From Octopus sinensis (lineage: Eukaryota), in NCBI RefSeq assembly GCF_006345805.1, contig NC_043012.1:40734001-40798000 (forward strand): a stretch of DNA of 64,000 bases, given 5' to 3'. Under the pieces are notes generated by a model. That model was not told where the DNA came from, did no database searches, and saw only the letters and a program-made list of their open reading frames with translations. The position numbers and the translations under genes are program-made. How positions within the stretch are numbered: position 1 is the first letter of the stretch; each line of letters opens with the position of its first letter. Positions 1-48,069 of the stretch are shown in pieces.

Positions 1-19
1 CATGAACTGCGTTTTCAAA

Positions 20-336
20 GTGTGTCACGAGACCAGACATGTTTTTTTCTTTATGGCAGATTGAAACATAAGGGAGGAATGCATACACCAGTCGATTTCT
101 CCCAGGACCCACAATATTTAGTGACCTGTGGAGGGCATATTCACATATTCCAGAGATAGAGGGATACAATTTTGGACAGACCGGTGAACCACAGCGTCAA
201 GTTTGGTAACTCCATAGATAACACACATACCCAACAAATAGAAAGTACTTGGGTGTGTTTGAAACAGGCTAACAAGCAACTGTGGGGTACACACCGTTCT
301 ATGATTGACTCGTATCCTTGCAAATTCATGTGCTAG
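20..336 (+). mobile_element. Merlin/ISXO2 (IS1595-like) DDE transposase C-terminal fragment, frameshifted
   Basis: Manual translation gives RFLPGPTIFSDLWRAYSHI..GY / VNHSVKF..NTHTQQIESTWVCLK..WGTHRSMIDSYPCKFMC*, matching the ISXO2 motifs SDxWxAY, VNHS, HTQxIExxW. Not in the ORF track on this strand. Confidence 0.8.
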
Positions 337-698
337 TACTTCGAGGACAACCTAATACAGGCAAAAGTATGATCGCTCGTAGTATTGCTGACATGTTCAC
401 ACATGTCAGTACTATTCAGGGAACAAGTAGCTTCCCATTTCAAAATTTAATTAACGTCGAAATCGGATCAATAGAAGAACCGAATTTTAAATTAGAAACT
501 CTACAAACTCTTAAGAAACTGGCAGAGGATCAGATAATACATCGCACACCACTTAGTATCACATCGAATAATATATTTGATCAAAACGCTCCTCCTGCCG
601 AAAGATATGCTTTCATAACACGTTATACAGAATACGTTTTTAATGCAGCCGCTCCTTTCTTAAAACACATAAAAAAGAAAATTAATCCATTTGTATGA
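318..698 (+). mobile_element. Endogenous parvoviral element: NS1 SF3 helicase fragment
   Basis: Walker A GQPNTGKS, FPFQ, Walker B IEEP and motif C region RTPLSITSNN in parvoviral order; the segment normally between KKL and the motif C region appears deleted. Confidence 0.85.
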
Positions 699-1046
699 AA
701 TATTTTAGGAGTATGACCGACTCAGAAATGAAAAAAGAAGGCGAAACAGACTTCGGTCTCCGTCTCCTTGTGGAGGCGGGGAAACTGATGGAAGCGGAGA
801 CAGAAAAAAATCCACAACTCCGACGACTCAGACAAAGAAAACGACATCACATGGGAAACACCAAAGTGGCATAAATATAGTAAAGTAATGGAGTCGCAAT
901 CCGAAGCGCCATCTGCTGAGCCGTTAAAAAAAATTTTAATTTTCCCTTGATTATATAAATAGTAATATCGAGGGGAAGTAACAGGAATAAAAGCAAGCAT
1001 TCAGGTAGGACTCCACAATGAGAGGTCTTATCGGAATGCTCTCCCC

Positions 1047-1965
1047 GTGCCTCTTGCAGCATCTAAAAACACTGAGAAGACCGCGGATTCTGCTACCCAT
1101 GAAGTTATTGCCATTGGGCTACCAGAAGACATGGCTGATCTTCAGGCATTTGCTGCCAACTCAGCCAAAGACCTAGGCTGCGTTCCCCCAACGGGTGCTC
1201 TCCGCCTTGGACGACCTGGCCCAAAACCCAGGCTCATCAAGCTGTCTTTTTCAGACCACGCTGAGGCAACCTCATACCATCTGGCCTCAGTTAAAGCTGG
1301 GCGTGAAAATCGAACTACCTTCCGAACACGTCCAGGCTTACCACCCGATGTACGTCCGAAGCTACGTGTAGCGACTTCCCTGAACCGGAACTCAGCTCTG
1401 CAAGAAAGTTTCAGTCTTCGTGAGGATGGACAAACCTGGAGATTTGTTAAGACTGGTGAAACGTGGAAGAGAGATACCAGCTGGTCTGAGTGCTCTCTAC
1501 CCACAATAACTGAAAATGGAAAAAAAACTACAGCAACTCTGGGAAACTAAACCAGAAAAACCTGCCATCCTCTACACACCATCATAAACTGCAAGCAGGG
1601 TACAAATTGTTGTCCTTAAATGCTCGCAGTTTATGCAACAAAATATATCTGTTCAACTCCTACGTCAGAAGTATTGACCCTGACTTCATCACATTCACGG
1701 AAACATGGGCACATTCCTTACTCTGTGATGGGGTTGTCAACATTACTGGCTACAACCTTTTCCGCAAGGATCGCATTAACCGCCGTGGTGGTGGTGTGAT
1801 GGTCTACGTTTGTTCAAATTTTTCGGTAATTCCTTGACCTGATTTGAACGAATCACAAGAAGTTTTTTTCTGTGACATACGTATGACCATGTCAACACTC
1901 CTGCTTGGCATTGTTTATCGTCCCCCAAATTACCATCAAAACACACAGCTTTGCGATATCCTCCG
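1047..1965 (+). mobile_element. CR1/L2-like LINE fragment: ORF1 C-terminus plus ORF2 APE endonuclease N-terminus
   Basis: 1047-1550 has the ORF1-like RLGRPGPKPRLIKLSF; 1607 onward gives LNARSLCNK, ITFTETW, GYNLFRKDR..RGGGVMVYV, and after a frameshift GIVYRPP. Confidence 0.85.
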
Positions 1966-2600
1966 AGCTGCTGCCAGGAAAACAGCCACTTGTTAACTTT
2001 CGCACATTCACTCAAGATAGCGGAGAATATAAATATGGATGAAGTACCTTTGACATTTGACCTGCCTCTCACTTGGACAGTTAATAAAAAGGTCACTCGT
2101 CCCTCACACTGAAAACAAGTGGCCATGAGAGAACGCATTTTACCTGTGTTCTGAGCTGCACAGCATCTGGACTAAAGATTCCACCGATGGGGACCTTTAA
2201 GCGGCTGACAATGCCAAAGGAAAAATTCCCAAAAGAAATCGTGGTGAAAGTCAATAAGAAAGGTTGGATGATGGAGAGCCTAATAACGATTGGCTGAGAG
2301 AGTGCCACGCCAAGCGACCTGGGGGGAGTTTTTCACACAAAAACAAGCATTGCTCGTTATGGACAGCATGAGGGCACATATAACAGATTCAGTGAAAGCT
2401 GCCATCAAGAGTACCAACTCAATTCCAGCTGTGATTCCTGGGGGCACCACTAAGTATTCGGAGCCACTGGACATCAGCGTGGACCGGGCATTTAAAGTGG
2501 CTCTGCACCCTGAGTGAGAGCGACAACGAAGAGGCTGAAGTGAGTGACGAGATTCGGACACTGAAGAAGAGGACTTTGATGGTTTCAGTGCACTGGAAGA
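1965..2600 (+). mobile_element. pogo/Tigger-type DDE transposase fragment
   Basis: NMDEVPLTFDLP, KTSGHERTHFTCVLSC, VNKKGWM, LLVMDSMRAH, IPGGTTKYSEPLDISV across frameshifts. Confidence 0.85.
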
Positions 2601-2659
2601 AGATGAAGAAGGTGATCAATGACTTTTGACCTGGTAGGCTGCAGTATGTGTGTGTGTGT

Positions 2660-4020
2660 ATATGAAGAAATAACCGGCACCACATTTAAATCTAGGAAAT
2701 CTCCTCCACCAAATAAACATCTCGATAACTTTGAACAGGAATTATGGGAGACTATCAAAAACATCAAATTTAAAAATCACCCATTGAGGTATAATAAGAA
2801 CTCTTAAGGGTAAGAATGGCATTCTAACCCATTCTGATAAAACCAGTAACATTTACAATATTGACATCTTTACATACACAAAGAAATTACAAAAAAATAT
2901 AAAATTGTACCTTTTAACACACTTAGGAAACTAAACCTTGAGATTAGAGAAATAATGTTGGACTATTACCTGGAAGAAAAAACTGAACCTTATACTCCCA
3001 CTAGACCGAGAATCACACTCAAGGACCATAAGGAAAACTTTCTTGGTAACACGCAGGTCAGATTGATTTGCCCTACCAAATCTGACTTAGGTAAACTGAG
3101 TAAACTTATTCTTGACAAATATTTACCAACTATATGTAACAAAATTAAACTTAGCCTTTGGAAAAATACACAAGGTGCATTAGATTGGTTTTCTGCCATT
3201 AAGGTTAGTGATAATAATAGAAGTAAATTCATCCAATTTGATATACAAAATTACTACTCCTCCATAAACCCTATTATATTAAATAAGGGTTTAATTTTTG
3301 CTAGGAGACACACCAAATTAAGTATGGGGGAGATTAGGGTTATTTTAACAGCTAGAAAAACATTAATAGAGTTTGATGATAAACTTTGGGCTAGAAAAGA
3401 CACACCCAATTTATTCGACATCACCATGGGATCGCCGGATTCAGCGGAAGTGACTGAGTGACTGATTTGGTTGGGATGTATTTACTCGATAACCTTAGTA
3501 GGGAATTCCCTGAATTAAAAGGAGGACTATATAGGGATGACGCTTTATTTTTGGTAAATAATACATCAAATAGGAGACTGGATCTACTGAAAAAAAGACT
3601 ACATAAATTTTTTAAAAGTTTTGGCCTATCCATAATTATTGAAAATGAAAATTATTCTGCCAATTATTTGGATGTCAATTGCAACCTTACTAATGGGATA
3701 CATGAACCTTATATTAAACCCAATTCTAACTTAGTTTATATAAACCGTTCTAGCAATCACCCCCCTCAAATTAGAAGGTCACTAGTGCGTAGCATTAGTC
3801 AGAGAATCTCTTATCTATCCTCAAACGGAGACATTTTTAATAAGCATTGTGATAGAAATAATACAGCATTGCTGAAAGCAGGCTACAAAAGTAAAATATG
3901 GTATATACCCAAGGGGAATCCTTCAAATACAGGTGGAACTATTTAGAACAACACCAATAGATTTAGGACAAACAATAACTGTAGGATTAGGAAAAATAGG
4001 ATATATATATATATAGGAAA
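2660..4020 (+). mobile_element. Penelope-like element copy 1, RT region, degraded and truncated
   Basis: DKTSNIY, ITLKDHKENF..VRLICPTKSDLG, FIQFDIQNYYSSI, FDITMGSPDSAEVTDLVG, GGLYRDDAL, NRSSNHPP; frameshifts. Confidence 0.9.
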
Positions 4021-4074
4021 AAAGCTTTAATAGCAGTAACTGATTAAATTCTACCTCCTTCCTCCTCTCTCTGT

Positions 4075-4530
4075 GATTCTTGTAAAAATCATTAACAACC
4101 TGCACCTCTACAATATAAGACTGTCATTTTGCTTCTCATTCGGATTCCCTGATATTTTCGCATGATTGTACCCTAAATCTCTTCACAAAACTGGATTATG
4201 AACTATAAGGACATGCACATATTCTGTAAATTCAAGACTTTTCATCGGATCTCCAAGAATCGAACTTATCTGCGATTCTTGTAAATTTCAATAACAATCT
4301 GTTCCTCTACACGATATGACAGGCACTTTGCTTTTACTCAGACTTTCCTCTACATGATGTGGCAGTCACTTTGCCTCTTACTCGGATTTTCAGAAATTTT
4401 GCATGACTGTATCCGAAAATTTCTTCACACAACTTGATTAAAAATTCAATATGAGCTATATGTAGACATGCACAAATTCTGTAAGTTTAAAACCTTTCAT
4501 CGGATCTCCATGAATCGAACTTTCTTCAAT
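4075..4530. repeat. Diverged tandem duplication, unit about 200-250 bp
   Basis: gacatgcaca.attctgtaa.tt.aa.ac.tttcatcggatctcca.gaatcgaactt and gattcttgtaaa..ca.taacaa.ctg..cctctaca each occur twice. Confidence 0.6.
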
Positions 4531-4594
4531 GCAGTTAATCTTACAACTTCTTTTGTATCTACCCCTTTTGATGTTTGGGAATTCTCTGATGTTT

Positions 4595-4682
4595 TTTCGG
4601 CTGACGAGTACGAGCCATCTGTATTCACTGCATTTTTTGTAGCTTATTAAAGATGTCCTCGTACGAAACGATCGTACCGAGA
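4595..4682 (+). ncRNA. Type I hammerhead ribozyme upstream of PLE copy 2
   Basis: Stem I TCGG/CCGA, core CTGACGA 4601-4607, stem II GTACGAG/CTCGTAC (extendable by CATCT/AGATG), GAAA 4665-4668, palindromic stem III ACGATCGT, GUA triplet 4674-4676. Confidence 0.9.
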
Positions 4683-4869
4683 TTTTAATCCATTCTTGTT
4701 GCTTTTTTCCTATTTGTAATCACCCCACTTATCGTATGGTTAACACCATATAGATTTCCGGTGCATCCTAGTTAAGGACCATATTCATGTGAATTCTTTA
4801 GAATCCACTTGAATCTCAATTACTTAACCGAATATATATATATATATATATGTATGTATATATGAATAA

Positions 4870-7215
4870 ATGGAGTTGTTCAATATCAACGCCCCTCTTA
4901 AGGATATTCCTATTCCAACAAAGAAAGCTTTCCTTAAACAACTTGTCAATAAGACTAATGCATTTACCATCCGCATCAGATGGCTCACCTTCTTCCACGA
5001 CAATAAGGACTTACAACAGACCAGTAATGACATCTCTAATGAATATAAAAAAGTTATTTAAATCGAAGGGTACCCCTCCATCTAACCCTAGATTGAAGCA
5101 ATTCGAGGATGATCTTTGGACCATCGTAAAGAATATAAAATTTCATCGGTCACCCTTCAGGAATAAGCACATTAGATATCTTAATAACGTCTCTAGAGAT
5201 ATCAATAACTTAGATTACGTCCTTGTTCAATCGGATAAAACCAGTAACATCTATAAGCTTACCAAAAGCCATTATTTGGAACTGCTCGAAAAGGAGATCC
5301 ATAAAAATTACAAGACCACCAGTAGGAATACTCTCAGGCAGGCCAACCTAGAAGCTAAACAGATTATGGAAACTTACGGATTACAAATGAAGACAGAACC
5401 ATTGAACCCCAGACAAGCCAGGTTCATTTTAAAAGACCACAAGCAGAACTTCCATACTAACCCAGTATTACAACTTATATGCCCTTCCAGCTCAGACATT
5501 GGTACTCTTAGTAAATATATATTAGATAAATTTCCACCCAAGAAATTTTTCCCCTACCTTTATAGATAATACCACTTACAATTTAAAAGTCACTAGGAAA
5601 AGTATCTGGTTCGTAATTCCATTTGGAAAACAAATTAAATCGAACCTTCCATTGCAGTTCCGCAAAGCGGTTACTAGGAACTTTCCAAATAAGGCCAACA
5701 CTAAATTTATTCAGTTTGATATATCTAGCTTCTATTCATCAATCAACCCTATTATACTTAATAAGGCACTCTGACATACACACAATAAAGTAGGTCTCTC
5801 TAGGGAAGAAATTAATGTGGTACTGGCTGCTAGGAAATCATTCATCAAGTTCAATAAGTTGTGGGTCCGGAAGAATACTCCAAATACGTTTGATGTATTA
5901 ATGGGAAGTAGAGATAGCGCTCCGATAGCCGATTTGGTCGGAATATATCTTCTTTCTGAAATGGCCGACCAGTTCCCAGACATCAGTGGAGGTCTTTATC
6001 ACGACGATTGTCTGCTTTACCTCCAAAACATTTCAAATCAAAAAATACAGAAGACTAAGAATAGATTAGGTTTTTTTAGTAGCATGGGCTTTCACATCAT
6101 TTTTGACGATGAGTTAACTAAAGCCAGCTTCTCAATTTACAAAACAACCCGTACTTTCCATACCATAAACCTTCCACAAATCTCAAATATATTAGTCTTT
6201 ACAGTAATCATGCTAGGGCAATTACTAATAATTTATTTAAAAACATTTCACTTAGATTATCTAAATTATCTGCCAATGTTGACATTTTTAACAAAAAGGC
6301 AGACTTCCATAACGCCGCCTTGATAAAAGCTGGTTATAAAGAGAAAGTGTCATACACTGATTCTACTCAATCTAGTCCTATATCTACTTGTAATAGTAAG
6401 AGTGATTTTAATTCTAATAGTGTAAGCAGCGCAATACACAATATAAATTCTTAACCTCAAATTTCCACCCAAGAAACTTTTCCCCTACCTTTATAGATAA
6501 TACCACTTAAAGTCACTAGGAAAAGTATCTGGTTCGTAATTCCATTTGGAAAACAAATCAAATCGAACCTTCCATTGCAGTTCCGCGAAGCGGTTGCTAG
6601 GAACTTTCCAAAAAATTCTATAGAGTCGCTTTCTCCAACACTAAGAATCTCTCACAATACCAATCTGCTAAATAAAGGTTCTTTATCTGGGAGTTACATT
6701 AATCTCGTTAATTCCAACCCCTTATATAATAAGAATAATGACGGTATTATTATTAATAATAATATTAATTGTATTAACAATAATAATAATCACAGCAATA
6801 AAAACTTGGTTCGATCTCTGAGGACAACCCCAACAGAATTAAATTTTTGTCTAATAATTCAAAGATCAAGAATTCTATATACCAGTGTAAAATTTCTTTC
6901 GGTACCGATGTCTACTTCCCAGTTATCCAAAAGAATTTCAAACCATTATTCATCGTTTAGGGATAGCAAAAAACGCCATAATACAGGGCTAAGTAAATCG
7001 GTTTGGCATCTTAAAGACAACAATAAAGATTTTAAGTTAGATTGGTTCATACTGTCCGTATCCTTTCCTTTCGATAAGGGCAAGAGATTTTGTAACATTT
7101 GCAACTCTGAACTCTTCCATATTCTCTTCTCTTAGAATCAACTTGTTAACACACTTCTAGAGCAATCGTACAAATGTAAACACTGACAGAAACATACCTT
7201 TAACTCATATAAGTG
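4870..7215 (+). mobile_element. Penelope-like element copy 2 (RT plus GIY-YIG endonuclease), frameshifted and internally rearranged
   Basis: Starts MELFNINAPLKDIP at 4870; SDKTSNIY, LKDHK, FDVLMGSRDSAPIADLVG, GGLYHDDCL; C-terminal KRISNHYSSFRD..TGLSK..CNICNSELFHILF. Confidence 0.9.
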
Positions 7216-7281
7216 ATTTCGCCGGTCTTTATAGTTTGAACAGTTAGTTTAACTTGCACTTTACTTGAATAGAGAAGTACA

Positions 7282-7490
7282 ATGACACAGTTTTTAAAAT
7301 TGACTCAGTATTTACATACAAGAGACACAAGCAGTACACTAGTACATGGAGAACCCTTATTTACAATAAAACCCTTCATTGACTGTTCAAAACATAAAAC
7401 ATTGTATGAACCAGGGAGATATTTATCTATTGATGAGGGCACGGTGGGCTATAAAGGCAGAGTGCGTTTTCGACAGTTGCTTTGCGGGAG
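7282..7490 (+). mobile_element. piggyBac transposase fragment
   Basis: FLKLTQYLH..FTIKPFID..YEPGRYLSIDEGTVGYKGRVRFRQ, typical SIDExMVxFKGR motif. Confidence 0.85.
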
Positions 7491-7799
7491 CAACTGCTTT
7501 GACGAAGACGCATCCTTTTGTAATGCTCGCAATGCAGAGTAGATAAAACAAACGACAACTGAGTCTTTACCAACTGAACCGTCACCATGTAGTGGATTTT
7601 ACCTGATTACTGGATTTTACCTGAAGAAACGGACCCTGAGGAAGGAAATGTTTTCTACGCTAAACTGAGCTAAAGGTTTTTATACAGTGAGTTAAATTCG
7701 GACTATTTAACACAACACAACACGTGGTATACAGGGTTGAATGAGGCCAGGGAGCGAGGGATAGTCACCCCAACTCTGATCAGATCGTCGTAGGGTTGA

Positions 7800-8540
7800 C
7801 TGTGGCTAACATGGAGTTGTTCCTGCATTTGTGAATTGCCCAACATGCAATGCCCCCTGCGTTGTTCGAAATGGAACTCATATGTTTCCATGTAGGATGA
7901 TGGTTCGGTGTCGGAGACAAAGGGAAACAGAATGCAGGTTTTCAGTGTCTATCTTCAAGAACACCTTTTTGGAGCGAAGCCGTTTACACCCATGGAAAGT
8001 TCTTTTGTTCATCAATCATTTCCTAACAGAAGATTGGTCACATAAATTTGTTATGGAAAATTTAGATATAACGCTTGCCACATCTGTTGATTGGCAATCT
8101 TTCTGCTTTGAAGTTTGCCTTCATTGGGTTGAAAATTGCCAAGCACAAATTGGAGGCCAGGGATCGCAGAGGAAATTTGTGAGACAGTTTTAGTTCGAAG
8201 AAAATACAACCGAGGTAGGCTTGTAAAGACTATTTGGCTTTTCGGGGGTATCGAACGGGAAGCGAAAAGGAAATTTTTGATATCTCTGTCATCAGAGTGT
8301 GGGGAAGGGGAAAGACGCAATGCTTCAACTCTTATCCCGTTAATCAGATGCTACACCCGTCAAGGTTCCATTATTTACTGTGACTGTTGGGGTGCTTATA
8401 GTTCTCTTCAAAATTCAGGTTATACAAATTAACCATAGTCAGAACTTTGTCGATCCGGCAAACGCATTAATTCACACACAGACCATCGAACAATTGTGGG
8501 GGACCCTCAAGAGAACTGTTTTACGGCCTGGAATTAAATA
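7800..8540 (+). mobile_element. Merlin/ISXO2 transposase, nearly complete but frameshifted
   Basis: N-terminal CPTC..C Zn ribbon, SIFKNTFLERSRL, IGG(P)G, RRKYNRGRLVKTIWLFGGIER, IYCDCWGAY, INHSQNFVDP..HTQTIEQLW. Confidence 0.9.
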
Positions 8541-9400
8541 GTGTTCCATGAAGCAATGGGAAAAGCAATTGACACAGGTTAAAAGATAAGAGAACCCGCG
8601 ACTCACAGGCCATAGTCCAACCAGATCAATGCGGACGTGTCGAAAATGGGCCTTCATAAGAGGAAAGTGTCCAAGTGGGGCACGAATGTGCCGCTGAATC
8701 ATGGAACGTTGGCACTTGGAGCAAGTGCGTGTCCAAGAGGTAATAATGTGACATATTCGGCCAAAAAAAACGAGCAGTGATAAGTCTAAGGGTAGCAGCG
8801 ATGCCAGGATGTGATAAGGAGTGCAGTGGAAGTATCACAAAGAATGGTACCTTCAGCTGACGGAAGCGGAAGATAGGCAAACTGGCAACAGGAGAACTTA
8901 GGCAAAATTAAGTCTAACGTCGCCAAAGGTGGTTGCTCCTGCGAAATGGCAGTTAAGTCATCGCAGCAGGAGACGAAAGAGAACAGACTGGAAGGCAAGA
9001 AAGAGCATCAGCCGGAACGTTCTCTTTCCCAGGTATATGATGAATGTCACTGGTAAATTGTGAAATAAATTCCAAGTGACGGAAAGCACAAGGCGAGAGT
9101 TTGTCCGTTTTAGATGACAGGGCAAACGTAAGAGGCTTACGACCAGTATAGATCACAAAATCTTGACCTTCGAGTTGATGCTGGAAATGACGAACCGATA
9201 GAAAGACCACTAGGAGCTCATGATCGTAAGTGCTGTATCGTCGCTCAGCTGGTTGCAGTTGGCAAGAAAAGAAAGCCAGAGGTCAAGTACAATCATCCAC
9301 TGTGTGTTGCAGCAGGTGCTTATACCTATTTCTTACATCTGTAGGAGTTAGCACTTCCTTCTCTAAGCTTGGATTCGAAATCGAATCCAAGAATCATCGG
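8540..9400 (-). mobile_element. Ty3/Gypsy pol fragment (RNase H plus integrase N-terminus)
   Basis: PLAFFS..AERRYSTYDHELL, VRHFQHQLEGQDFVIYT..KPL, HIPGKENVPADALS, HSLSHPGI, CSKCQR, FRHVRIDLVG. Confidence 0.9.
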
Positions 9401-10499
9401 TCGTCAAATACCAATGCATGTATAGGCGCAAAATTTAAAGATCCTTTGTTCTGTCAAAAAGTGATTGACATCTCCCTTTGACCTGCGACCTCAGCCATGT
9501 CAGGCGAAGTTCAACTGGACACACGTTGACCTACTTAGTATGTCTATCTGTTGCAATATGTCTATCTTTCTAGCTGTTTGAAATATTATCAATACAAGGG
9601 AAAAACAGACAATCGGAGCTGACACACCAGCAGACACCCCGCGTTTTGGAGACGACAGAGAAAATGCCTACAGGCTACTGTTTCGAATGATTCACGCACA
9701 CACCCACACAAACATATTCATCTTTATTATGTGCTCTATACAAGCAATGCGTAGCATTTGCTTACAATTGTATGTAGTGTATTTATAATCCATGTAAATA
9801 AATCCCTTTTTAATCATGAAACAATTTATGTATTTATTAATACACACACACATCCACTACACATCCTTCACCAGCCATCTACAGTATGTTATAACCAAAG
9901 CAGAGCAACTTCCAATCAGAGATGCTACATATATAGGAAAAACCAAACAAAATATGAGGAACTCTTCAACAGACAACACAGAAACTGTCACTCCAAAAGA
10001 TTCCGTTGCCCAGCCATTTACTATAAGACTGTTTTAATTACAATACCAAAATGACTTTTGGCAAGATTAATGAGTTTACATTCGGGTGTTTTATTGAAAG
10101 TTGGCTTGTGGTCCTTCAGTGTAAAGTAAGTTGCCGGTTTGCCTGTACCAGCATCACAACTTATTCACTCACCAAAACTTAAAAATTTCAAAACATGTCA
10201 ATCGCTAATCTAACACAAATTTCAGCTGACCTAATCATAAGTTTTCCAGGTTTCTCCAATCTGTCACTGATGTTAGGTGGCGCTACTTGCTGATACTTAT
10301 ATGGTCAACAGTACTTACAAGGTAGACTATTTTTCTTTTTATTTGTTTTGTTCTATTTATTATTATAACCTGTTTGCTTTTAGCTTCAGCCATGGTTCCA
10401 ATGAATAAAGAAAATACTATTCCTGCTAAATACAAACACCAGATATTGTTCAAGACAAAATTGAATTTTTGAAAAAAAAAAACCCACTCAAAAACTCGA

Positions 10500-11100
10500 C
10501 AGTAATGCATCTGTAAAAAGTCTACGAGAATTATACAGCACTGGATCTTTCACGATTTATGAGAAAAAGAAATATGAAACCTGACCTCAGAAAAAGGAAG
10601 ACATCTCAAGAAGTACAATAGATCATAAATCACTTGCAACTAAAGAGTAAGGTAATATAAAATACTTAGTGATAGCTTTTACCAACCCTGTCTGTTGGTA
10701 AAAATTTTGGACAAATATTTTCGTAGTTAGGAAGAGCAGATTCTTATTGCCAAAGTCTCTCCACTGTGTTGTTTTGTTTTTAAGACACCATCAACACTGA
10801 GAGGTATTGCTCAAATATTGTCCATCCATTTGTAGGCCAACTCACTGAAAGTGAAATTAATAAATGCATACTTTCAGCAAGATGGAGCTACAGCCCATAC
10901 TTCGCGCATCACCATGGCACTACTTCAAGAATTTTTCAGTGAACAGATTATTTCGAAGGGACTTTGGCCACCAAGATCATCTAAATTTAACAGACTTTTT
11001 AATTTTTTTTCTTTTCTGGGGAGCAAGTAAAGGATCAGTGCACAAGAATTGCCCAAAAGCCATTAATAATATATTTATTACAATACTGACATAAAAGCTT
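10500..11100 (+). mobile_element. Tc1/mariner (maT/rosa-like) transposase remnant
   Basis: Frame not in ORF track: FQQDGATAHTSRITMALLQEFFSEQIISKGLWPPRSS..FFLFWG. Confidence 0.8.
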
Positions 11101-11525
11101 TCTTTTAAATTCATTTGGAATTAACCTCTGTGTCTAATTTTTAACCAAAGAGTTCAAAGATGTGGGCACCCAAACAAGCACAATGATTCAAAATGAATAG
11201 AGTGTGATAGTAGTAGGAGTGGCCTCATGCCTCCTATTGTTTCAGGCAGAGGGGCTCTAAGGTGCCCTTACAAAGATTGAATTTGGGCTTTCTACCATGC
11301 AAAACACCTAACACCCTTAGCCTGACAGTTCTCTTTACAAGGAAACGGTTTCAATACAATGAATTGCCACCTGTGGTAAGGTATGAAGATTTAATAAACT
11401 ATTCAGTATAAACACGATACATATTGGACACAAATCATTGATCGTAAAAAACAGTAAAATGGGACTTTCTATTTTGAGGGGGTAGAAAGCCATTTCATTA
11501 TCATAATTTTTTACACATCATAGTT

Positions 11526-12380
11526 CAGTGGTTCCCAAACTATGAGTCGCGACCGACAGATGGGTCGCGAACGGAATCTTAGTGGGCCGCAAAAAGTTAT
11601 AAAATTACGCATTAGCTTTGATTAACGGTCTATCGAGATAGTTCAAGACTCATGTTTTCAATACCAGACTTGTTGTTTTATCAAGCAGTAGGCTTTTTCA
11701 CGAACTTAACAAATCAGAGGTTGTCATTTTCTCAAGTTATTTATTTGTACGTAATCGTAAAAAGGAAAGGTCTGTTTTTACCTATTTACAGAGAACTTTA
11801 ACTAGGCGAAGTATAACACTGATTGAGCCGATAACAGTTACTACTTCAAGGTTTTGCATTAGTGTTAGTATTTACACATACACAGGGTATAGAGACGTTG
11901 AAACAGTTATAGAACGTTTTGTTTCACATTTAATATAAATAGTAAAAACATTAAATAAATAAGACATTATGGATTTCCCTAGTAAGTTAATAAATTATTT
12001 AAAAAGGTATAATAGTGATCACCAGGAGGCTATCAATTAACCAATGAAATGATTGGAATAGATAGCAGCTAGACAGTAGATACATCAATAGAGTCTATCA
12101 GATAAACGGTTTAAATAGCATCACATCGATTGAAAGGACGTTTATCATTAATTGTAGAAGTTCGTATGACCCCAAACATATTTTCATTCTGTCAAATCTC
12201 TTGGTAAGTCGAAATTATCTGTCCTTCTAAATTCGATTTTTTCGTATTTACTCAGTTCTTCATTTTATGGATAAATGGTTAAAAAAAGGCAGTTGAAGCT
12301 GATGACGATGAGTCTTCAGTGGATCGAAACGAAGAAAAGACCAATCAATCAAAACTAAGCCAGTCAAACCGTGTTCTTTC
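11526..12380 (+). mobile_element. hAT (Charlie/Buster-like) element 5' end, cut off by PLE copy 3
   Basis: Terminus CAGTGGTTCCCAAACT..GGGTCGCG typical of hAT TIR/subterminal motif; MDKWLKK start at 12267. Confidence 0.65.
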
Positions 12381-12506
12381 TGTTGTGAGTTTGCTACCCA
12401 GGTATCGGTTATCTTTCGAATTATCCGTAATAAGATAATTCATTTATCTACTTAAATATTCATATACAGCTTCGCTAAGAACCTGCTACCTTAAACGATA
12501 CCGCAA

Positions 12507-15129
12507 ATGGAGTTGTTCGAGATTAACGCATCCTTTAAGGACATTCCTATACCACCAAAGGAAGCCTTCCTTAAGGAAATTGTCTGCAAAACAAATGTAT
12601 TCATCAACCGGATTAGATGGCTCGTTTTCTTTCATGATAACGAGGATTTAAAACAGAACCAGTCCGCAACATCATCCGAATATAAGAGGCTTTTTAAGTC
12701 GATGGATACACCACCACCTAACCCAAGACTGAAGAAATTTGAGGATGACTTATGGGGCATTGTAAGGAAGATTAAATTCAGGAAGTCGCCCCGGAGGAAT
12801 GAACACCTCAGATACCTAGAGAAAATTACTAAGGATATCAACAGGTCAGACGGAATCCTGGTCCAATCTGACAAAACAAGGAACACGTACAAGTTACCTA
12901 TTAACCAGTACTTAGAATTACTCAGAAAAGAGATCCAGAAGAACTATAGAACCACAAATAGGAACACACTGAGAAAAGTCAGCTTGGAGATTAAGAAAAT
13001 AATGGTTAATTATGGAATTCAAATGAGAACACAACCGCTTAACCCAAAACAACCTAGATTCATCGTTAAGGACCACAAACCAAATTTCCACACCAATCCA
13101 GCATTAAGGCTCATATGCCCTTCTAGTTCTGACATCGGTTCCATCAGTAAGTACATTTTAGACAAATACATTCCTAGTTTAGTCAATAAGCTTAAGCTTA
13201 ACCTTTGGGCGAACTCCACGCAAGTCGTAAATTGGTTTTCTTCCGTTTTCTAATAAAAACAGCACTAAGTTCATTCAGTTCGATATTGCTAATTTCTACC
13301 CCTCGATAAACCCTAGTGTACTCAATAAGGCCCTATGGCACGCGCATAATAAGGCAGGCCTCACAAGGGAGGAAATTAATATAATTCTAGTAGCTAGAAA
13401 ATCCTTTATACAGTTTGAAGATAAGTTATGGGTCTGTAAGGATACTCCCAACGCGTTCCATGTGCCAATGGGAAGCTCAGATAGCGCCCAGATAGCCGAT
13501 TTGGTCGGAATCTATATTCTCTATGAATTAGCCGACTAATTCCCGGACATCTGCGGCGGTCTATATCGAGACGATTGTCTTTTTTACCTACAGAATGCTC
13601 CAAACAGGATACAGAAAACTAAAAATAGATTAGCTAGGTTCTTTAGTAGGATGGGCATGAACATAGTTTTCGACAACAAACTAAGGCCAATTTCTTAGAT
13701 GTTACCCTAAATCTGCATAGCAATTCTTACTACCCCTACCATAAACCTTCTACAAACCTAAAATATGTCAGTATTTTCAGTAACCACGCAAAAACTATCA
13801 CAGATAATTTAGTTAAAAATATTTCTTTAAGATTATCAAATTTATCTGCCAACGTCGACATTTTTAAGCAAAAAGCGGAATTCTATAATGCCACCCTGTC
13901 AAAAGCCGGTTATAGGGAAAAGGTAGCATATATCGACCCGGCCCATCCGAAACCAGTATTTGCTCATCAGGATAAGTTAACTTACAATAATATAAATAAT
14001 ATAAGTAGTGATGGTAGCTCTAGCAATGTTGACACAAATAACATAAGTTGCAGACCAAGGGAGACCATCGAAAGCCAAAACCCATTCTTCAATACAGAGA
14101 TTCCCCCCTTAATGTAAGGGTTAACACTCCGAGCCAGTCCAAGAACAGAAAAAACTATATCTGGTTTGTGATTCCTTTTGGGAAACAAATCGGATCTAAC
14201 CTCCCTTTACAGTTTTGCCAAGCCATTGCCAGGAATTTTCCCAGAAATTCGAGATATTACTCCACTATTAATTCGCACAAAGTAAGGATTGCTTTCTCAA
14301 ATACTAAAAATCTCTCACAGATAATTGCCTCCCATAACAATAAGCTGCTAAATAAGGTCTCATCACCCATGAGCAGAGACACCGCCCTGTCAAATTCCAA
14401 CGTAACATACAGTAATAATAATAGAAATAGCACAGATTTTAGCAGCCTTCATAGCAGCATTGGCGTTAGCAATAGTAATAAGGATAAGAGCACTGGCCAG
14501 GACAACAAAAGGAGGGGGGTCTCAACAATAATAGTAGCAGCGTTCTTAACAACAGTAGTTTTACGGATAATAACAATCACAGCATTCCCAGAAACAGGGA
14601 ATGTGCAGGTGATATTGCCTTAAATAGTAATGAAAAGAGGATGAATAGTATTGTGCCCAAATCCAGCAGTAATTTTTACACCCATCATAGAAATAAGAAC
14701 GCTGTATTAGTATCGGAAACTAATCCCAATAGATTAAGGTTCTTATCATATAACTCCAAAATTAGAAACACCACTTACCAGTGCAAAATTTCTACTGGAA
14801 CCGATGTCTACCTCTATATTGGCGCAACCTCTTCTAAATTAGCCACATGGATCTCCAACCATTTTTCCACGTTCAGAGATAAGAGTAAACAGCACACCAC
14901 GGGGCTAAGCAAATTAGTCTGGCGTTTGAACACAAATTCATCTTTTACGCTGGAATGGTCAATATTGTCGGTGTCCTTACCGTTTGATAAGGCCAGAAAA
15001 ATCTGTGCCCTATGTAATTCCGAACTTTTTCATATTCTGTTTGCCCGAGGCCACGTAATAAACTCGATTGTCGAGAGATCTTTCAGATGTTTACACTGGA
15101 AAAAGCATACCTTTCACTCATACCAATGA
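12507..15129 (+). mobile_element. Penelope-like element copy 3, near full-length RT plus GIY-YIG, several stops/frameshifts
   Basis: MELFEINASFKDIP start, QSDKTRNTY, VKDHKPNF, FIQFDI, PMGSSDSAQIADLVG, GGLYRDDCL, SNHAK, Asn/Ser-rich linker, YQCKI..YLYIGAT..NHFSTFRD..CALC..CLHWKKH. Confidence 0.93.
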
Positions 15130-15653
15130 AGTCTAATATAGACAACCCCTGGATTTCCTACAAAATTAATTTATGATATCTCATCCCTTTAGTTTATAAG
15201 ATTTTCTCATAATTGCTAAGAGCTGCTACCAATTCCAGTAGTCCCCTCGTCTCTTGTCACTACTATTGTGGGCCCTCTCTGCCCACTCCCTCTTAAGTTG
15301 ACACATTCGAACACACAGACACAGTCCTTTCACCTCCTGACTTAATTTTCTGTCAGCCTTCTACACACACATTAAGACAATTATACACACCCACACATAC
15401 GAGCACTCATTCATAAAATAAATCAAATATAAACACCAGTCAAACGGAATGCATTCCCTCACCTTAATACTCTTTTACCTTCCTCCTCCAACCTCAATTG
15501 AACCCTTGAACTCTAGTAACTGCCAATTTCTCCTACATTCAACCAATCTGACGTCACCCCCTATAAATAGACACTATCATTATCGCTATGGGCTCCTCGA
15601 GAGCAGTCATCTAAAAACTTGTTGTGCATTTTGTTGGCGAAAGAAGTTCCTGG

Positions 15654-15739
15654 ATTTTCCTGATGAGAAAGCTGCATAATGGACTCCTTATTCATTCGGA
15701 ATTAGGAATTTTGCAGACTTCGAAACATATGTCGAAAAT
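15654..15739 (+). ncRNA. Type I hammerhead ribozyme 3' of PLE copy 3
   Basis: Stem I ATTTTC/GAAAAT, core CTGATGA 15660-15666, long bulged stem II, GAAA 15722-15725, palindromic stem III ACATATGT, GUC 15731-15733. Confidence 0.88.
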
Positions 15740-17039
15740 AAAATAAAGGAATTTGTTAAATCTTCGCTCAGCTCCATTCTTTCCTATACAAGGCTTTATG
15801 CCTATAATAAGTAGTTCTCTTAGAGAGGTACATCTGCTACAGGACACACCCTTCACGCCATTATTGAAGGTTACCAAGTGAGGTCCTCACTTTAGAAGGG
15901 TGTCTCCATGTTGTTAAACTGCCTTCCTCTTCACATGTGGGCCACATCTTCCATAATGTCTTTTAGACCCTACTTTAATGATTGTGGCAGGATTGGCTCA
16001 TCTGCGCACGAGTGAAACCCCTGTAAAGGATCGTTCTGCTTCGACTTCAATACTGCTGCCGCCTGGCCCCACTCAAAATTAATTTCTTTTTTTTTATATA
16101 CTGGAGCCAATTTACTACTTTAATTTCCCAGGGATGGAAACATTTCTATTTTTCGGTGCTAGCCACATATGGAAAGCTTTCTATACTGCTGTTGGCATTG
16201 TTAATTTTTCCACTGGTCATGTTTTTGTCACTCACCATTTCCCTGTTTTATGTCAGTACTTTTCATTGTTGTTGCTCTTGTTGCTGTCCCCATTCACCCT
16301 CTGAATGCTTGATGTGCCATAACTGGTGACATTGCACATTTTTTCTACAATACTCTCAGCTTCTAGTGGGTCAATAATACTCCGGTTGTTCTCATTGTTG
16401 GCGTTGCTCTCTCTCCAGTCATCTAGTGGAGCGAATAAGAGATGAGGAGGAAAGTCTTTGGCTGTAGGAGGAAGTTATCACTCTTAAAGGGAAAGTGTTG
16501 ACATCTTTTACAAGTAATGTTTTAAAAACTTAAACGAGCATTTCTTTTGGAAAACAAAATATTGCCCCAGAAGGGCCAAAACAACCCAAGAACACCAGTC
16601 AAAAGATTACTGGCGTTCTTAGTAACATCTGATATATTCCACAGCAAATATAATAATAATAATGCTTTCAAATTCTGACACATGGCCAGCAAGTTCAGGA
16701 TAAGCGGTAGGTAAGTAGATCGACCCCCCCCCTCCTCCCCCATGTTCAACTGGTGCTTGTTTTATCAACCCTGAAAGGATGAAAGGTAAAAGCTGGCATC
16801 AATGGAATTTAAACCTAGATGATAATAATAATGATAATTACTATCATAAACAAAAAAAAAAGTCACAAACTTGAGGGAAGTTTCAGTTAAATTGTGTTGG
16901 TTCAAGGAGGATAAAAGGCTAAAATGACTTTGGTGTCATCTGAACACAGAACAAAGACTGCAAAGCATTTTACTCTGATTCTCTAAGGACGGTGCCAGTC
17001 TATCACTCAATGTACTTTTTATAATAAATTAAAAATATT

Positions 17040-17590
17040 GGGGGAAAAAAAAAAAAAAAATTTATATCAATTGATAGTAATTTTTTTTTTGAATTGATAT
17101 TAAAAATTTAAATATCAATTCATATTAAAAAATTTGAAATTATATCAACATCAAAAATTGAGGGAAAAAATGGGTATAAATTGATGTTCTTTTCTACTCT
17201 AGGCCCTAGGTCAGGGGGGGGACAGTCAATTAGATCAACCCCCAGTACACAACTGGTACATAATTTATCAACCCCTAAAGGATGAAAGGCAAAGTCAACC
17301 GCAGCGGAATTTGAACTCAGAATGTAAAGACATGAAATACCACAAAGCATTTCACCCAGCGTGCTAACAATTCTGCCAGCACACCGCCTTTGATATCAGT
17401 TGATATTAAATATGAAAAAAATAAAAAACTGATTTCAATTGATATTAAAAATTAAAAACTGATATCAATTGATATTAAAAATAAAAGAAATTGATATCAA
17501 TTGATATTAAAAATAAAAAAAAAAAACGATACCAAATGATATTAAAAATTAAAAAAACTGATATCAATTGATATTAAAAATTTAAAAACC
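17040..17590. repeat. Tandem array of about 28-30 bp units with palindromic core ATATCAATTGATAT, interrupted by a SINE at about 17200-17390
   Basis: About 10 degenerate copies of (c/t)tgatatcaattgatattaaaaa starting just 3' of the DONSON stop. Confidence 0.8.
17200..17390 (-). mobile_element. tRNA-derived SINE family B (representative; other copies near 20690-20830, 24860-25040, 42090-42270, 43400-43550, 55250-55400)
   Basis: Recurrent ttatcgaccccgaaaggatgaaaggcaaagtcgacctcggcggaatttgaactcagaac; B-box-like gttcaaat on the minus strand. Confidence 0.75.
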
Positions 17591-17623
17591 ACAAACAAAA
17601 AAATTAAAATTAACAAAATATCA

Positions 17624-17950
17624 TCATGATGACCAGACAAAACCATCAGGAGTACAAGTGATATCTGAAACGGAATGTTTAAATGCTGAAACGAGAGAAG
17701 TAGAAGAAAAAGCAGAACCGACTTTGTTATTTAGGCTTTTGCTAGGAAGCGGATTCGAGGAGGCATGCGTCGTTGGAACGTTAAGCGCTAACGTTGGTTC
17801 ATGAGTGTGAAGGGATAAGGTGAAGCTTTGGTCTTGTGTCTGGCGGATCAACTTGACCAGTCTTTGGACATGTGTTGGCAAGATCGGTCCAGCCATCTCC
17901 AGCACGCTGACTTTCTGTCGGTCCTTCTGTAAGGCTGTGCTGTGTTTTAC
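17624..17950 (-). CDS. DONSON: DONSON coding exon 10 (terminal)
   Basis: cctcag|VKHSTALQKD..LEMAGPILP..HTHEPTLALN..GFVWSS*. Confidence 0.92.
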   Translation of the reverse strand, partial: VKHSTALQKDRQKVSVLEMAGPILPTHVQRLVKLIRQTQDQSFTLSLHTHEPTLALNVPTTHASSNPLPSKSLNNKVGSAFSSTSLVSAFKHSVSDITCTPDGFVWSS

Positions 17951-20900
17951 CTGAGGTGGAAGAATTAAGAAACACTAAAAGAATTGCTGCCAAAGTGAGG
18001 CATGCCTTGCACTACAATATACAATACGTCCAATTTTCTGACACAGTATACCTTGGACTACAATATAAAATGTGTCCATCTATTTTGACATACAATACCT
18101 AAGAATACAATATTAAACATGTCCTATTTTCTGACATAGTATATTAAGATGGCAAGGAACCCATTTAAAACCTTCACAATGAAATCTTTTAAGAAAGAAA
18201 AAGTTAATGGTTTATTTTTAGAATATTTGTAAGGTAGGTGTAAGAGGCTGGATCTGACCAGCTGGAACACAGAACAGGTAAATATTTTGGCTGAATATAA
18301 TCAGTCTAACCCTTAAGCATTCAGATTATTTATTCAAATATAATACTCATTAACCATTTCGCTACCGTATTTATTTTGAGATGCTCTGTGTTTCTTTCAA
18401 TTATTTTAAATATAACAAAGAATTTAGTAAAATAACTTAGTTATCATTAAGCTAGTGTTTGGAACATAAATTGTGACTAAGGCTTGGTGGAATATATTAA
18501 TTCAAACCTTATGAAAACAAGACATTTTACCACAGAGCCGGTTTTGGCCGGCTTAGTAACAAAAGGGTTAATTCACATTGTCTTGAATTAATCGCACATA
18601 ATTTTGTAGCTTTGAGATTTAATTACGATAATTTTCAGAATGACATTGTAAAGTAGGTGTGAGAGGCTAGATCTAGCCAGTTTGTACATAAAGCAGGTAC
18701 AATATATTGGCTAGATATGGCCAGTTTAAATGCTAAAGAGTTAATCTGGCAACCAGTCTGACACCTCACCCCACCCACATCACCTCGCAGGCATTCAAGT
18801 GACCCCCCCCCCATCAGCTGGGAGATGACTCCCTCTTTCTTGCCCCACTCTTTCCATCAGCATCAGAGGTTCTGTAAGACCTGATGGAAACTGTCTTTCC
18901 TCTCAACTAAAAGATAAAAAAAAAAAAAAAGTATTGTTGATTTACCAGCAAGAAAATAACAACCAAACCACAAGGAAGGATACATTTGATAATGTGGTTC
19001 CAGCTTTAACACCCTTCATCTTGGGTCTGCTTGGACAAAACTAACATGGGATGGGAAAAAGAACTGCAAATTACCTTCAGTGATTTCAAGGCAGCCCCTT
19101 TGAAAGCATTTGGCGATAAAATGGTCGGCGGGATGCCATGTTGTGGACCAACAGCAGCGATGCAGGCTCTCCAGTTGAGGAGGAAATTAAACAGGGCTTG
19201 GACGTCAACGTCTTGGTCTAGGACTAGCACCGATTCAGGGCGGCAGTCAATCTGTTTAAAACCTTCACGACGACTGAAATCTTTTATTAAGGAAAAAAAA
19301 AAGTGTGAAGCTGGAGGGCGATGAGGGAAAGGCATTAAAAGGAGAGATAACAAGGGGAGGGGGCATAAAACTACCACCCACCCACACACAATGTACGGGG
19401 AACAGAGACAGAGGTGGGAGACAAACTTCTGAACTATACAGCCACGTGTTCCTATATTTATATCAGTGTAGTGATCAGACAACACCTCAAGGAGGCAGTG
19501 GCCAGTGACGGAGACCCTTGGCAATAATATAATGGGCTTCGGAAGACCTGTCAAGTGAGGATCACAATCCTGGCCGACGCCTGTGTTTTGCAACAGGCAC
19601 CCGCACCAGTGGCACATAAAAAGCACCCACTACACTCTTGGGAGTGATTGGCGCTAGGCAGGGCATCGAACTGGAGGAACTGTGTTCAATTAGAATGAAA
19701 CCTGGTGCAGTTTCCCCAGTTCTCAGTCAAAGCATCCAACCCATGCCAGCATGGAAAAACAGACATCAGGTGATAATTATGATGTCAGATGTGGTTATGT
19801 AAGTATATTCCTGGCAATGCACTTCCTCCCACTGCTACAGTTCTCAAATGATAAACACCCAGTTGGCTCGGCTCACAGGCCAGTGTATCTATACACACAC
19901 ACATCCACCGACTTACACACTGCTGTGTGCGTCTTGCCACGGAAGCAACCAAAGTGGACTCACAACCAAAACAATGATGTAGTCAGTCAGTGACAGAGTG
20001 GAAGGGGGGGGGAGACAAGGAGAGAGTGGGGAAAAAAAAAAGAGAAAAGGCTGCCTCTCCAAACACACAGAGTAAACAAGGGGAGATAAGCTATACTATC
20101 TCAAACATTTCAAAGGTCCAGAGAGCAACTTGCTGGTTTGGTTTAAAGCCATTAAACTACTTGGATACGCAGCAAAGATATTCCAAGAGTGAAAAACTAC
20201 ATATTACATAATTGGGGGAGGGGGTATGTAAAGAAAGGAAGATATCTTAACTATATCACATAACAAGCTTACTAGGGGAAGCCTTTGCCTGATTGATGAA
20301 CTGCAAGAAATAGCAGTCAAATTCAAAGGACACATAGGCAGTGTAGTGTTAGATAAAGAAGATAGGACTGTTGATTAGTTTATGGTAAACTAAATCCATA
20401 AACTCAGATTAACTACACAATTCATCACCACTGCCTGGTACTTGGGGTACCAAGAATTACATCTTCTGCCTCATAATATTCTAGAAGCTGTGGTTTCTCC
20501 ATTCTCTCCTCTACCCATGTCAGAGGTTAGGCACTGGCATTACCACCCCCTCCTCCAACATTCCCTTTGGTCGACATTTTTCATTTTACAAATTACGGAC
20601 ATTAAAAAAAAATTGAAACAGATTCAAGGGAGATAACTGCCAAACACGTCAAAAGTTGTATTCTTTTCTACTTTAAGGTACACGGCCTAAAACTTTGTGG
20701 GAGGGGCCCAGTTGATAGGATGAACCCCACTAATTCAACCTCTCAGCGGAATTTGATCAAGACGTAAAGACAGACGAAATACCACTAAACATTTCACCCT
20801 GCATGCTAACGATACTGCCAGCTCGTCACCTTACAAAGTTATATTACCGAGTCACTGATTGAACAGATTTATGACAAAAGACACTCCAGCTGTGATCATC

Positions 20901-29048: not shown

Positions 29049-29086
<38 letters not shown>

Positions 29087-30306: not shown

Positions 30307-30341
<35 letters not shown>

Positions 30342-31672: not shown

Positions 31673-31703
<31 letters not shown>

Positions 31704-31708
31704 TACAC

Positions 31709-31739
<31 letters not shown>

Positions 31740-48000: not shown

Positions 48001-48069
48001 ATTTCGTAGACAGGAACTGAAACAAATCAATCATATATATATATGTATGTATATATGTAAGTATATGTG

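Follow-up and report, generated by a model that had tools for sequence, protein, structure and literature searches.

The core read-through piRNA clusters of Aedes, Culex and Anopheles, as presented by Qu et al. (10.1101/2022.08.22.504762), lie directly behind an expressed gene, extend over tens of kb, occur in poly(A)-type RNA and capture antisense pieces of non-retroviral viruses. The mammalian piC-DoGs described by Konstantinidou et al. (PMC11615739) are dense antisense transposon fragments immediately downstream of a coding gene with intact exons; in the same report, read-through was not generally tied to the presence of transposons downstream of a gene. Among molluscs, unistrand clusters are reported for the slugs Arion (PMC11615739) and Deroceras (PMC12506671) and for Lymnaea and Crassostrea (PMC6128900), with fragments packed on one strand, a composition unlike the genome average and piRNAs from the strand opposite to the fragments. 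Drosophila flamenco and flam-like clusters (van Lopik et al., PMC10643416) were detected from DNA strand bias alone, and the flam-like candidates with small-RNA data in that study produced one-strand piRNAs. Octopuses have piRNAs (PMC12479628); we found no description of read-through-fed unistrand clusters for cephalopods, and the O. bimaculoides piRNA locus tables of the same source could bear on the novelty of such clusters.

The locus described here, a block of about 53 kb behind the Octopus sinensis gene DONSON, shares the layout described above for the mosquito, mammalian and mollusc clusters, with piRNAs from the opposite strand as a prediction, and, like the flamenco type, was recognized from strand bias. 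In contrast to the mosquito clusters, its viral pieces are of the ssDNA parvovirus-like kind, the host is a cephalopod, and both piRNAs and read-through are predicted. The piC-DoGs are described as mostly ERV and L1, whereas this block holds at least ten classes, with many DNA transposons, Helitrons and Penelope elements. The slug, Lymnaea and Crassostrea clusters, as their reports present them, are not tied to host-gene read-through, viral insertions or SINE exclusion. Flamenco spans hundreds of kb and has its own promoter and a Gypsy-driven bias (PMC10643416), unlike this block, in which all classes are biased and one of the three Gypsy pieces lies on the minority strand. The closer model is the mosquito and mammalian read-through cluster rather than the Gypsy-specific flamenco, which the sequence-only reading had used as its model. 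We regard the block as a likely unistrand piRNA cluster, whose precursor probably arises by DONSON read-through along the minus strand.

Organization of the block downstream of DONSON

The window, a stretch of 64,000 nucleotides on contig C16, contains only part of the block. The whole one-sided, SINE-free transposon and virus block lies at about 40,697,260–40,750,705 of this contig (53,444 bases, from −36.7 kb to +16.7 kb relative to the window start), and its predicted precursor strand is minus. It contains Penelope, LINE, Gypsy, Helitron, Merlin, pogo, Tc1, hAT, piggyBac and Crypton-like elements and a parvovirus-like virus, the latter as two NS1-like pieces antisense to the predicted transcript. 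We searched Pfam with 150 of the 180 ORFs of at least 42 aa and compared the block by tblastn with ORFs taken from other loci; the reversed block, used as a control, gave no match. The features of the window part are as follows.

1..16704, no strand: window part of the block, predicted precursor strand minus
1..354 (tblastn 99–354), plus: Merlin transposase 3′ piece, counted as one event; the last of about 7–12 partial local copies, 92–99% alike and confined to the block
309..707 (Pfam Parvo_NS1 309–695), plus: parvovirus-like NS1 helicase fragment (Pfam, tblastn), with 69–80% DNA identity to the second NS1 at −20 kb
966..1990, plus: LINE 5′ part, with endonuclease at 1526–1966 by tblastn and an ORF1-like frame at 966–1550 by eye; the CR1/L2 label is that of the sequence-only reading, a putative clade
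1988..2659 (Pfam DDE_1 2287–2514), plus: pogo-type DDE_1 fragment (Pfam), with a 99% duplicate at −9.6 kb
2685..3940 (tblastn 2685–3937), plus: Penelope-like element 1 (PLE 1), RT remnant (tblastn)
4870..7225, plus: Penelope-like element 2 (PLE 2; tblastn)
7273..7540 (Pfam 7273–7539), plus: piggyBac transposase fragment (Pfam, tblastn)
7805..8568 (Pfam ISXO2/Merlin 8133–8429), plus: second Merlin family fragment (Pfam, tblastn)
8559..9315 (Pfam 8629–9282), minus (minority strand): Gypsy RNaseH–integrase fragment (Pfam, tblastn)
9338..9863, plus: Penelope-like 3′ piece, overlooked at first (tblastn)
about 10024..10632, minus (minority strand): Penelope-like RT remnant, overlooked at first (tblastn, E 0.002); a 97% copy on C15 adjoins a minus-strand PLE frame
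10752..11073 (tblastn 10863–11073), plus: Tc1/mariner DDE fragment (tblastn)
11526..12368, plus: hAT element 5′ end, truncated by PLE 3; assigned by family comparison, other copies running on into a hAT transposase of the same direction
12367..15789 (tblastn 12438–15126), plus: Penelope-like element 3 (PLE 3), near full length, at most 95% identical to dispersed copies
15790..16704, no strand: link, bridged to PLE 3 by RNA contigs; of 40 candidates scored, none gave it a second match
16705..17588, no strand: interval separating the block from the DONSON stop, with two copies of a SINE kind and a tandem repeat rich in AT (17410–17588), where RNA contigs break
17624..38201, minus: DONSON, ten coding exons, stop at 17624–17626, the predicted source of read-through

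The gene named in the sequence-only reading was verified: three exons of minus-strand DONSON match PDB 8q6o_R, and ten coding exons were mapped to 17627–38201. The block does begin directly past its stop; the distance is less than 1 kb (edge 16705, stop 17624) and not about 1.5 kb as first stated.

Strand bias and SINE exclusion

The families and strands first named for positions 1–16,000 were confirmed by Pfam and tblastn, and the original count of 11 fragments to 1 became 12 plus to 2 minus (binomial P = 0.013). When the orientation count was carried upstream, the bias grew to 22 plus and 3 minus independent insertions (P = 1.6e-4), local duplicates having been collapsed and two items omitted, a weak 'parvo' match of 36 aa on the minus strand (−35.3 kb, E 0.002) and, at L001:6324, a motif spotted by eye that resembles Merlin. 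ORFs of at least 180 aa number 24 on the plus strand versus 0 on the minus strand, and coding bases, counted with a library built from other loci, 19,262 versus 1,021. It should be noted that pooled control fragments also skew to plus (10,251 vs 3,142 bases), from few elements. Gypsy stands at 2 plus and 1 minus; the bias is carried by all other classes, whereas a strictly flamenco-like cluster calls for a bias driven by Gypsy LTR elements. Unrelated insertion mechanisms share one orientation here, which points to sorting after insertion, with selection as the putative cause.

Transposon-coding DNA makes up 37.9% of the block, compared with 3.35% in ten fixed-position 40-kb control stretches and 0% in the DONSON body, whose introns contain SINEs and zero coding transposon matches. 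The poverty in SINEs and microsatellites noted earlier for positions 1–16,000 was borne out: the 53,444 bases hold no SINE copy of at least 100 nt, where the control rate predicts about 20, and the longest of 164 SINE-free gaps in the controls is 16.6 kb. Young SINEs (at least 93% identical to a neighbour, and thus at least as young as the elements of the block) would be expected about six times and were found zero times in the block (P = 0.002).

The CpG observed/expected ratio is 0.32–0.39 in DONSON, 0.56–0.72 in the block and 0.8–0.9 over most of the sequence flanking it upstream. The local Merlin copies show transitions at 8 of 52 CpG sites versus 15 of 478 non-CpG sites (P = 8e-4), and this excess indicates that they were methylated once duplicated, like the gene bodies here. 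Self-matches within the block are direct in 95 of 100 cases, and inverted repeats are almost absent.

Transcription of the block

We used contigs of four runs of the long-RNA type from two studies (X1, X3, X14 and X15), counted as RNA because spliced joints are present and not from the run records, none of which lists them as RNA; DONSON introns are spliced in all four (CT..AC on the plus strand). The block is transcribed: unstranded contigs from spliced runs of both studies cover it and bridge junctions unique to the locus at about 8560, 9330, 9940 and 15790. In X14, a single contig of 3,463 nt spans 13264–16725 with 9 differences. Contigs reach 16725 from the block side and 17589 from the DONSON side, breaking at the SINEs and the tandem repeat; among the contigs of the four runs, none joins the last DONSON exon to the block, and continuity between the two is a prediction. 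No splice joint inside the block was found among the joints listed. Contig depths in X14 (271 for DONSON exons, 59 for the link–PLE 3 contig, 12 for an intron contig) give a weak hint of a gradient. In favour of RNA cover, the DONSON intron bin 20077–20743 is empty in X1 and X3 (0.1 and 0) with the block covered. On the other side, the bins 16075–16741 and 12073–12739 are nearly empty in X1 between covered stretches; uncovered bins in one run were not read as absence. In one RNA contig the Merlin–pogo joint extends 300 bases beyond the assembly's copy, so that the block likely varies between individuals.

The minus strand is the predicted RNA strand. Mutation asymmetry and RNA editing showed no polarity (A>G 6 vs T>C 4 among Merlin copies), and an excess of T over A on the strand predicted for the RNA was set aside as strand evidence, being confounded by A-rich transposon frames.

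The lack of AATAAA behind DONSON reported earlier was reproduced: the minus strand has none between 11740 and 17624, with ATTAAA at 16119 and 15974 and TATAAA at 17018 and 17061. The argument drawn from it proved weak, since AATAAA falls below expectation at this locus alone. On the predicted RNA strand of seven blocks, 330 were seen versus 236 expected, a ratio of 1.4 (controls 1.5–1.6), and a general shortage of poly(A) signals in such blocks was rejected. The first AATAAA past the stop lies at 5.9 kb for DONSON, 5.2 kb for POLH and 2.2, 2.1 and 0.7 kb for the others, and ATTAAA occurs within 0.4–2.5 kb of the stop in all genes compared.

Similar blocks at other parvovirus-like insertions

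Five of the eight other parvovirus-NS1 sites examined sit in comparable one-sided, SINE-free blocks, and SINE-free runs longer than 30 kb occur at six of nine NS1 sites examined versus none of ten controls. The strand of NS1 foretold the majority strand in all six other blocks (C10, C12, C14, C19a, C27 and C29), and long ORFs named by Pfam in seven other blocks number 56 on the majority strand versus 2 on the minority strand. The surroundings are mixed or ordinary at the C5 and C19b NS1 sites, at C1425 and at two of three further PLA2-domain sites. A search of viral contigs revealed no exogenous NS1 relatives.

In four of the other blocks the start lies 3–8 kb beyond the final coding exon of a gene that was verified, and the transposons are antisense to that gene: DIPK2A, POLH, an FKBP-TPR gene and a conserved unnamed gene (P0013). 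The best PDB matches of the FKBP-TPR gene, on C29, are other FKBPs, with FKBP6 at E 7e-8; its domain order agrees with that of FKBP6, of which it may be an orthologue. An ESM Atlas search with a DIPK2A exon and the 'longer' search with a C6 exon gave no match, and the C27 flank exons were identified by eye only. At C10 and C14, no upstream gene was found within the 35–45 kb searched. On the far side of three blocks lies a converging gene or exon (GNL2 at C19a, FABP at C29, an unnamed frame at C12), and there the layout alone cannot tell which gene reads in. Multi-exon Piwi-domain genes, PIWI and AGO taken together, are present on C4, C10, C24 and C26; with the piRNAs reported for octopus (PMC12479628), they were taken to show that the host possesses a PIWI pathway.

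Discussion

The stronger bias upstream, the presence of the block in RNA assemblies and the same anatomy behind other genes at parvovirus-like insertions lend support to the unistrand-cluster reading first proposed from the sequence. The defining sign of a piRNA cluster would be 1U-biased reads of 26–31 nt from a single strand, predicted here to be the minus strand. In our model, RNA polymerase II would pass the 3′ end of DONSON and yield a minus-strand precursor across the block, antisense to 22 of the 25 insertions, which would be cut into piRNAs against all the transposon classes named above, from Penelope to the Crypton-like elements, and against the parvovirus-like virus. Antisense insertions would be retained because they add guides, and those in sense orientation would be purged, as would SINEs.

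A long 3′ extension or a non-coding transcript yielding no piRNAs, with sense insertions lost merely for disturbing transcription as in introns, is compatible with the RNA cover, the gene-body-like CpG decay and the antisense bias. It does not account for the viral pieces, the SINE gap or an amount of transposon coding DNA eleven times that of the controls, and DONSON's own introns contain SINEs and no such coding DNA; we consider it unlikely. The cluster may instead be driven by a promoter of its own, located close to the DONSON end or within PLE 3. The poor X1 cover at 16075–16741 in an otherwise covered block, the shared anatomy of C10 and C14, where the search around the predicted start revealed no gene, and the stand-alone clusters known in Aedes (10.1101/2022.08.22.504762) would fit this. 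However, contigs of X14 and X15 lead from PLE 3 across the unique link to 16716–16725, less than 0.9 kb from the stop, four other blocks begin behind gene ends, and the CCAAT/TGACGTCA/TATA string at 15535–15570 points to the plus strand and is part of the PLE family, so that a separate promoter seems rather unlikely.

If the block were a neutral nest, built by recent insertion and local duplication, its bias and SINE gap would reflect few events and little time; the Merlin and pogo pieces duplicated locally at 92–99% and the probable variation at the Merlin–pogo joint fit this view. This explanation is largely refuted and very improbable: the bias survives the collapsing of duplicates, young SINEs are missing, and the layout recurs elsewhere in the genome, on strands that had been predicted beforehand. 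Alternatively, the transcript might enter a different silencing pathway, for instance by pairing with RNA of transposons or viruses to give endogenous siRNA. A 22-nt class alongside piRNAs, reported in Lymnaea (PMC6128900), would be a parallel, but inverted repeats are nearly lacking and slug clusters of like shape are reported to yield 1U piRNAs (PMC11615739); to this route we assign the least probability.

If small RNAs confirm the read-through-fed cluster behind DONSON, a cephalopod would join mosquitoes and mammals as a host of read-through piRNA clusters, and the blocks on C16, C12, C19, C29, C6, C27, C10 and C14 form a short candidate list for existing octopus small-RNA data. A wider reading, possible although doubtful, is that the octopus has a genome-wide set of piRNA clusters fed by read-through of proliferation and germline genes (DONSON, POLH and the FKBP6/Shutdown-like gene), which would hold a heritable record of parvovirus-like infections and keep out the abundant host SINEs and microsatellites, sparing the host's SINE-laden mRNAs from piRNA attack. 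If it is true, SINE-free gaps in the DNA sequence would suffice to map such clusters, and all three bilaterian branches would have read-through clusters. The blocks contain most of the parvovirus-like insertions found in the genome, a record of unknown cephalopod viruses, and the exclusion of SINEs makes it testable how clusters avoid guides against host transcripts.

Extent, Composition, and Strand Bias of the Block

The stretch of transposon and parvovirus-like fragments behind minus-strand DONSON is a real, strongly non-random feature. The families and strands that a sequence-only reading had assigned in 1–16000 were recovered by Pfam and by tblastn with ORFs from other loci, the hAT and Tc1 assignments being settled via copies of their families. 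Its strand count of 11 to 1 has become 12 plus to 2 minus (P = 0.013), because two Penelope-like pieces had been overlooked, and the bias itself stands.

Features at the DONSON locus (window coordinates; the window is C16:40,734,001–40,798,000)
9338–9863, plus: Penelope-like tail, overlooked earlier
about 10024–10632, minus: Penelope-like remnant, overlooked earlier
38201 to stop at 17624, minus: DONSON, ten coding exons

With 200 kb of DNA upstream of the window added, the SINE-free run measures 53,444 bases (−36,739 to +16,705, negative positions lying upstream of the window), three times the size first proposed. The bias persists into the upstream DNA: after collapsing local duplicates (a Merlin piece many times, a pogo piece once), the whole block holds 22 plus to 3 minus independent insertions (P = 1.6e-4), in agreement with its long ORFs, a measure free of repeat libraries (24 plus, 0 minus). 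The upstream part carries on the plus strand two Helitrons, two Gypsy pieces, two Penelope-like pieces, a near-complete L1/Tx1-type LINE, a second pogo family, a second parvovirus-like insertion, and a piece whose relative gives Pfam QRICH1 and which we take to be Crypton-like; on the minus strand it carries one LINE 5′ end.

Close to the far edge of the block, the first Merlin-derived copy has at its left end an inverted repeat of ~60 bases (L004:5800–5960, window about −34.1 kb). The closest Merlin copy beyond the block is 84–86% alike; this relative, at L053–L056 (C16, 15.09–15.13 Mb), lies within a smaller mixed-fragment region with 6 plus and 0 minus long ORFs and a SINE gap of 14 kb. Upstream of DONSON, outside the block, is an RTE-type LINE remnant, labeled from its motif (48050–50463, plus).

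As controls we used ten 40-kb stretches at the preset position 12.0 Mb on C2, C4, C8, C11, C13, C15, C17, C18, C20, and C22. The poverty in SINEs and microsatellites noticed earlier is borne out: SINEs cover 0.28% of the block versus 3.6–11.5% of controls, as found with four copies from the window, which other SINE families could escape, and microsatellites 0.46% versus 2.2–10.2%, while coding transposon cover is 37.9% versus 3.35%. No SINE-free gap longer than 16.6 kb occurs among 164 in the controls. About six SINEs having a neighbor at least 93% alike would be expected in the block, so a young age is not by itself enough to account for the gap. Loss of SINEs might stem from self-tolerance or from avoiding double-stranded RNA.

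Evidence for Transcription

Four small assemblies (X1, X3, X14, and X15; 4 of 24 listed, from two studies) were aligned to 1401–21400 at 96% likeness. Their status was judged from splicing and not from record labels: the DONSON intron 17946–19071 is spliced in all four, with CT..AC ends, and intron 19273–21040 in three, so that the assemblies represent RNA. An Octopus vulgaris protein matches the DONSON exons at 88–100% identity, and the protein of another gene in this genome is listed by NCBI for Octopus sinensis.

One X14 contig (13264–16725, 9 differences) and X15 contigs (13495–15753 and 15724–16716) pass from the third Penelope-like element (12367–15789, plus) into the single-copy link up to the block edge (15790–16704); dispersed relatives of this element are at most 95–97% alike. 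The Merlin–Gypsy junction is spanned by X1 and X15 contigs with 0 differences, and X1 spans two further junctions. X1 and X14 carry a Merlin–pogo joint resembling that at −9.7 kb and reaching further into Merlin than the genome assembly. In X1 and X3 one DONSON intron bin is empty and the block is covered. Counting against this, 16075–16741 is scarcely covered in X1, and the four assemblies, whose contigs are unstranded, hold none joining the last DONSON exon to the block.

The lack of a canonical poly(A) signal noted earlier is real behind DONSON, and AATAAA occurs 28 times in the block there versus 35 expected, but seven blocks together show no depletion relative to controls. A scan for a converging gene on the far side of the DONSON block found none.

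CpG observed/expected is 0.56–0.72 in the block, 0.32–0.39 in DONSON, and mostly 0.8–0.9 upstream. Among Merlin copies, 8 of 52 CpG sites are changed versus 15 of 478 other C and G sites, five times the rate. Octopus methylation lies mainly in gene bodies, and given this the CpG decay of the block fits germline transcription.

Similar Blocks Elsewhere in the Genome

The 2.7-Gb Octopus sinensis genome has NS1-like sequence in 10 places. Among eight other NS1 sites viewed over at least 30 kb, five (C10, C12, C14, C19a, and C29) lie within SINE-free runs of 34–72 kb, C27 has a smaller one-sided block, and C5 and C19b are mixed, low-CpG DNA. With the DONSON block included, NS1 sites fall in such runs in 6/9 cases versus 0/10 controls, with P = 0.003 being generous because regions were lengthened after a first look. 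Four further sites viewed over 20 kb each, C1425 and three with a PLA2 domain, comprised a single co-oriented case and three mixed or ordinary ones; a further block, on C6, was reached via two adjoining Penelope-like matches. A Pfam family was found in 58 of the 134 long ORFs of seven blocks, 56 of them on the majority strand (counting ORFs, not events).

Genes were sought where the antisense transcript of each block would begin.

Genes at predicted transcript starts
end C19:42,566,121: DIPK2A; first minus-strand element 3 kb beyond
end C12:57,457,895: POLH, 3 kb ahead of its block
C29, about 12,989,700–13,004,000 (L121–L123), end near 13,000,300–13,004,000, plus: FKBP-TPR gene fronting the C29 block
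end C6:54,283,600: cephalopod-conserved gene, 4 kb from plus-strand elements

At C27 minus-strand exon-like frames were seen by eye, and no gene was found within 35–45 kb at the predicted start of the C10 and C14 blocks. C19a, C29, and C12 also have a gene or frame converging from the far side and are therefore weaker cases. The C29 gene encodes one FKBP domain followed by TPRs, an arrangement shared with the piRNA biogenesis factor FKBP6/Shutdown, of which it may be an ortholog.

About 15 kb of the C29 block (13,020,000–13,035,000, L041–L042), with CpG observed/expected near 0.1 and strong C-over-G skew, is probably a tandem array. On its majority strand, the C14 block holds an intron-free 366-aa ankyrin-repeat frame (L023:5312–6409, minus) adjoining an NS1 fragment.

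Three separate parvovirus-like insertions have a capsid-like frame that ends immediately upstream of NS1, with both on one strand and no more than about 40 bases between them.

Capsid-like/NS1 arrangements
L003:8400–9775 (window about −21.6 to −20.2 kb)
L039:4319–6817, with a PLA2 domain at the start of the capsid-like frame
L118:1363–2502

Parvoviruses usually place NS before VP; the genes here may therefore be in an atypical order, or the template may have been circular. Broken, intronless Piwi-domain copies on small scaffolds (C9497, C8702, C12468, and C7758) are possibly processed pseudogenes.

Proposed Model

Polymerase likely runs past a weak DONSON 3′ end and transcribes the minus strand of the block; the resulting transcript would lie antisense to almost every insert and would enter PIWI processing. 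Antisense inserts would be retained, and sense inserts and SINEs would be lost. This layout matches that of read-through piRNA clusters in mosquitoes (10.1101/2022.08.22.504762) and mammalian piC-DoGs (PMC11615739, which also treats slug unistrand clusters); related work treats flamenco-like clusters of Drosophila (PMC10643416), unistrand clusters of Lymnaea and Crassostrea (PMC6128900) and of Deroceras (PMC12506671), and octopus piRNAs (PMC12479628). Unistrand clusters are already known in slugs. Titles and abstract openings in the piRNA, cephalopod, endogenous-virus, parvovirus/densovirus, and SINE-depletion literature, a coverage mostly outside subscription papers, gave no earlier description of these octopus loci.

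Taken together, the block is a candidate read-through piRNA cluster, most likely a further instance of an established type of system in a lineage new to it, and its sister loci are already listed.
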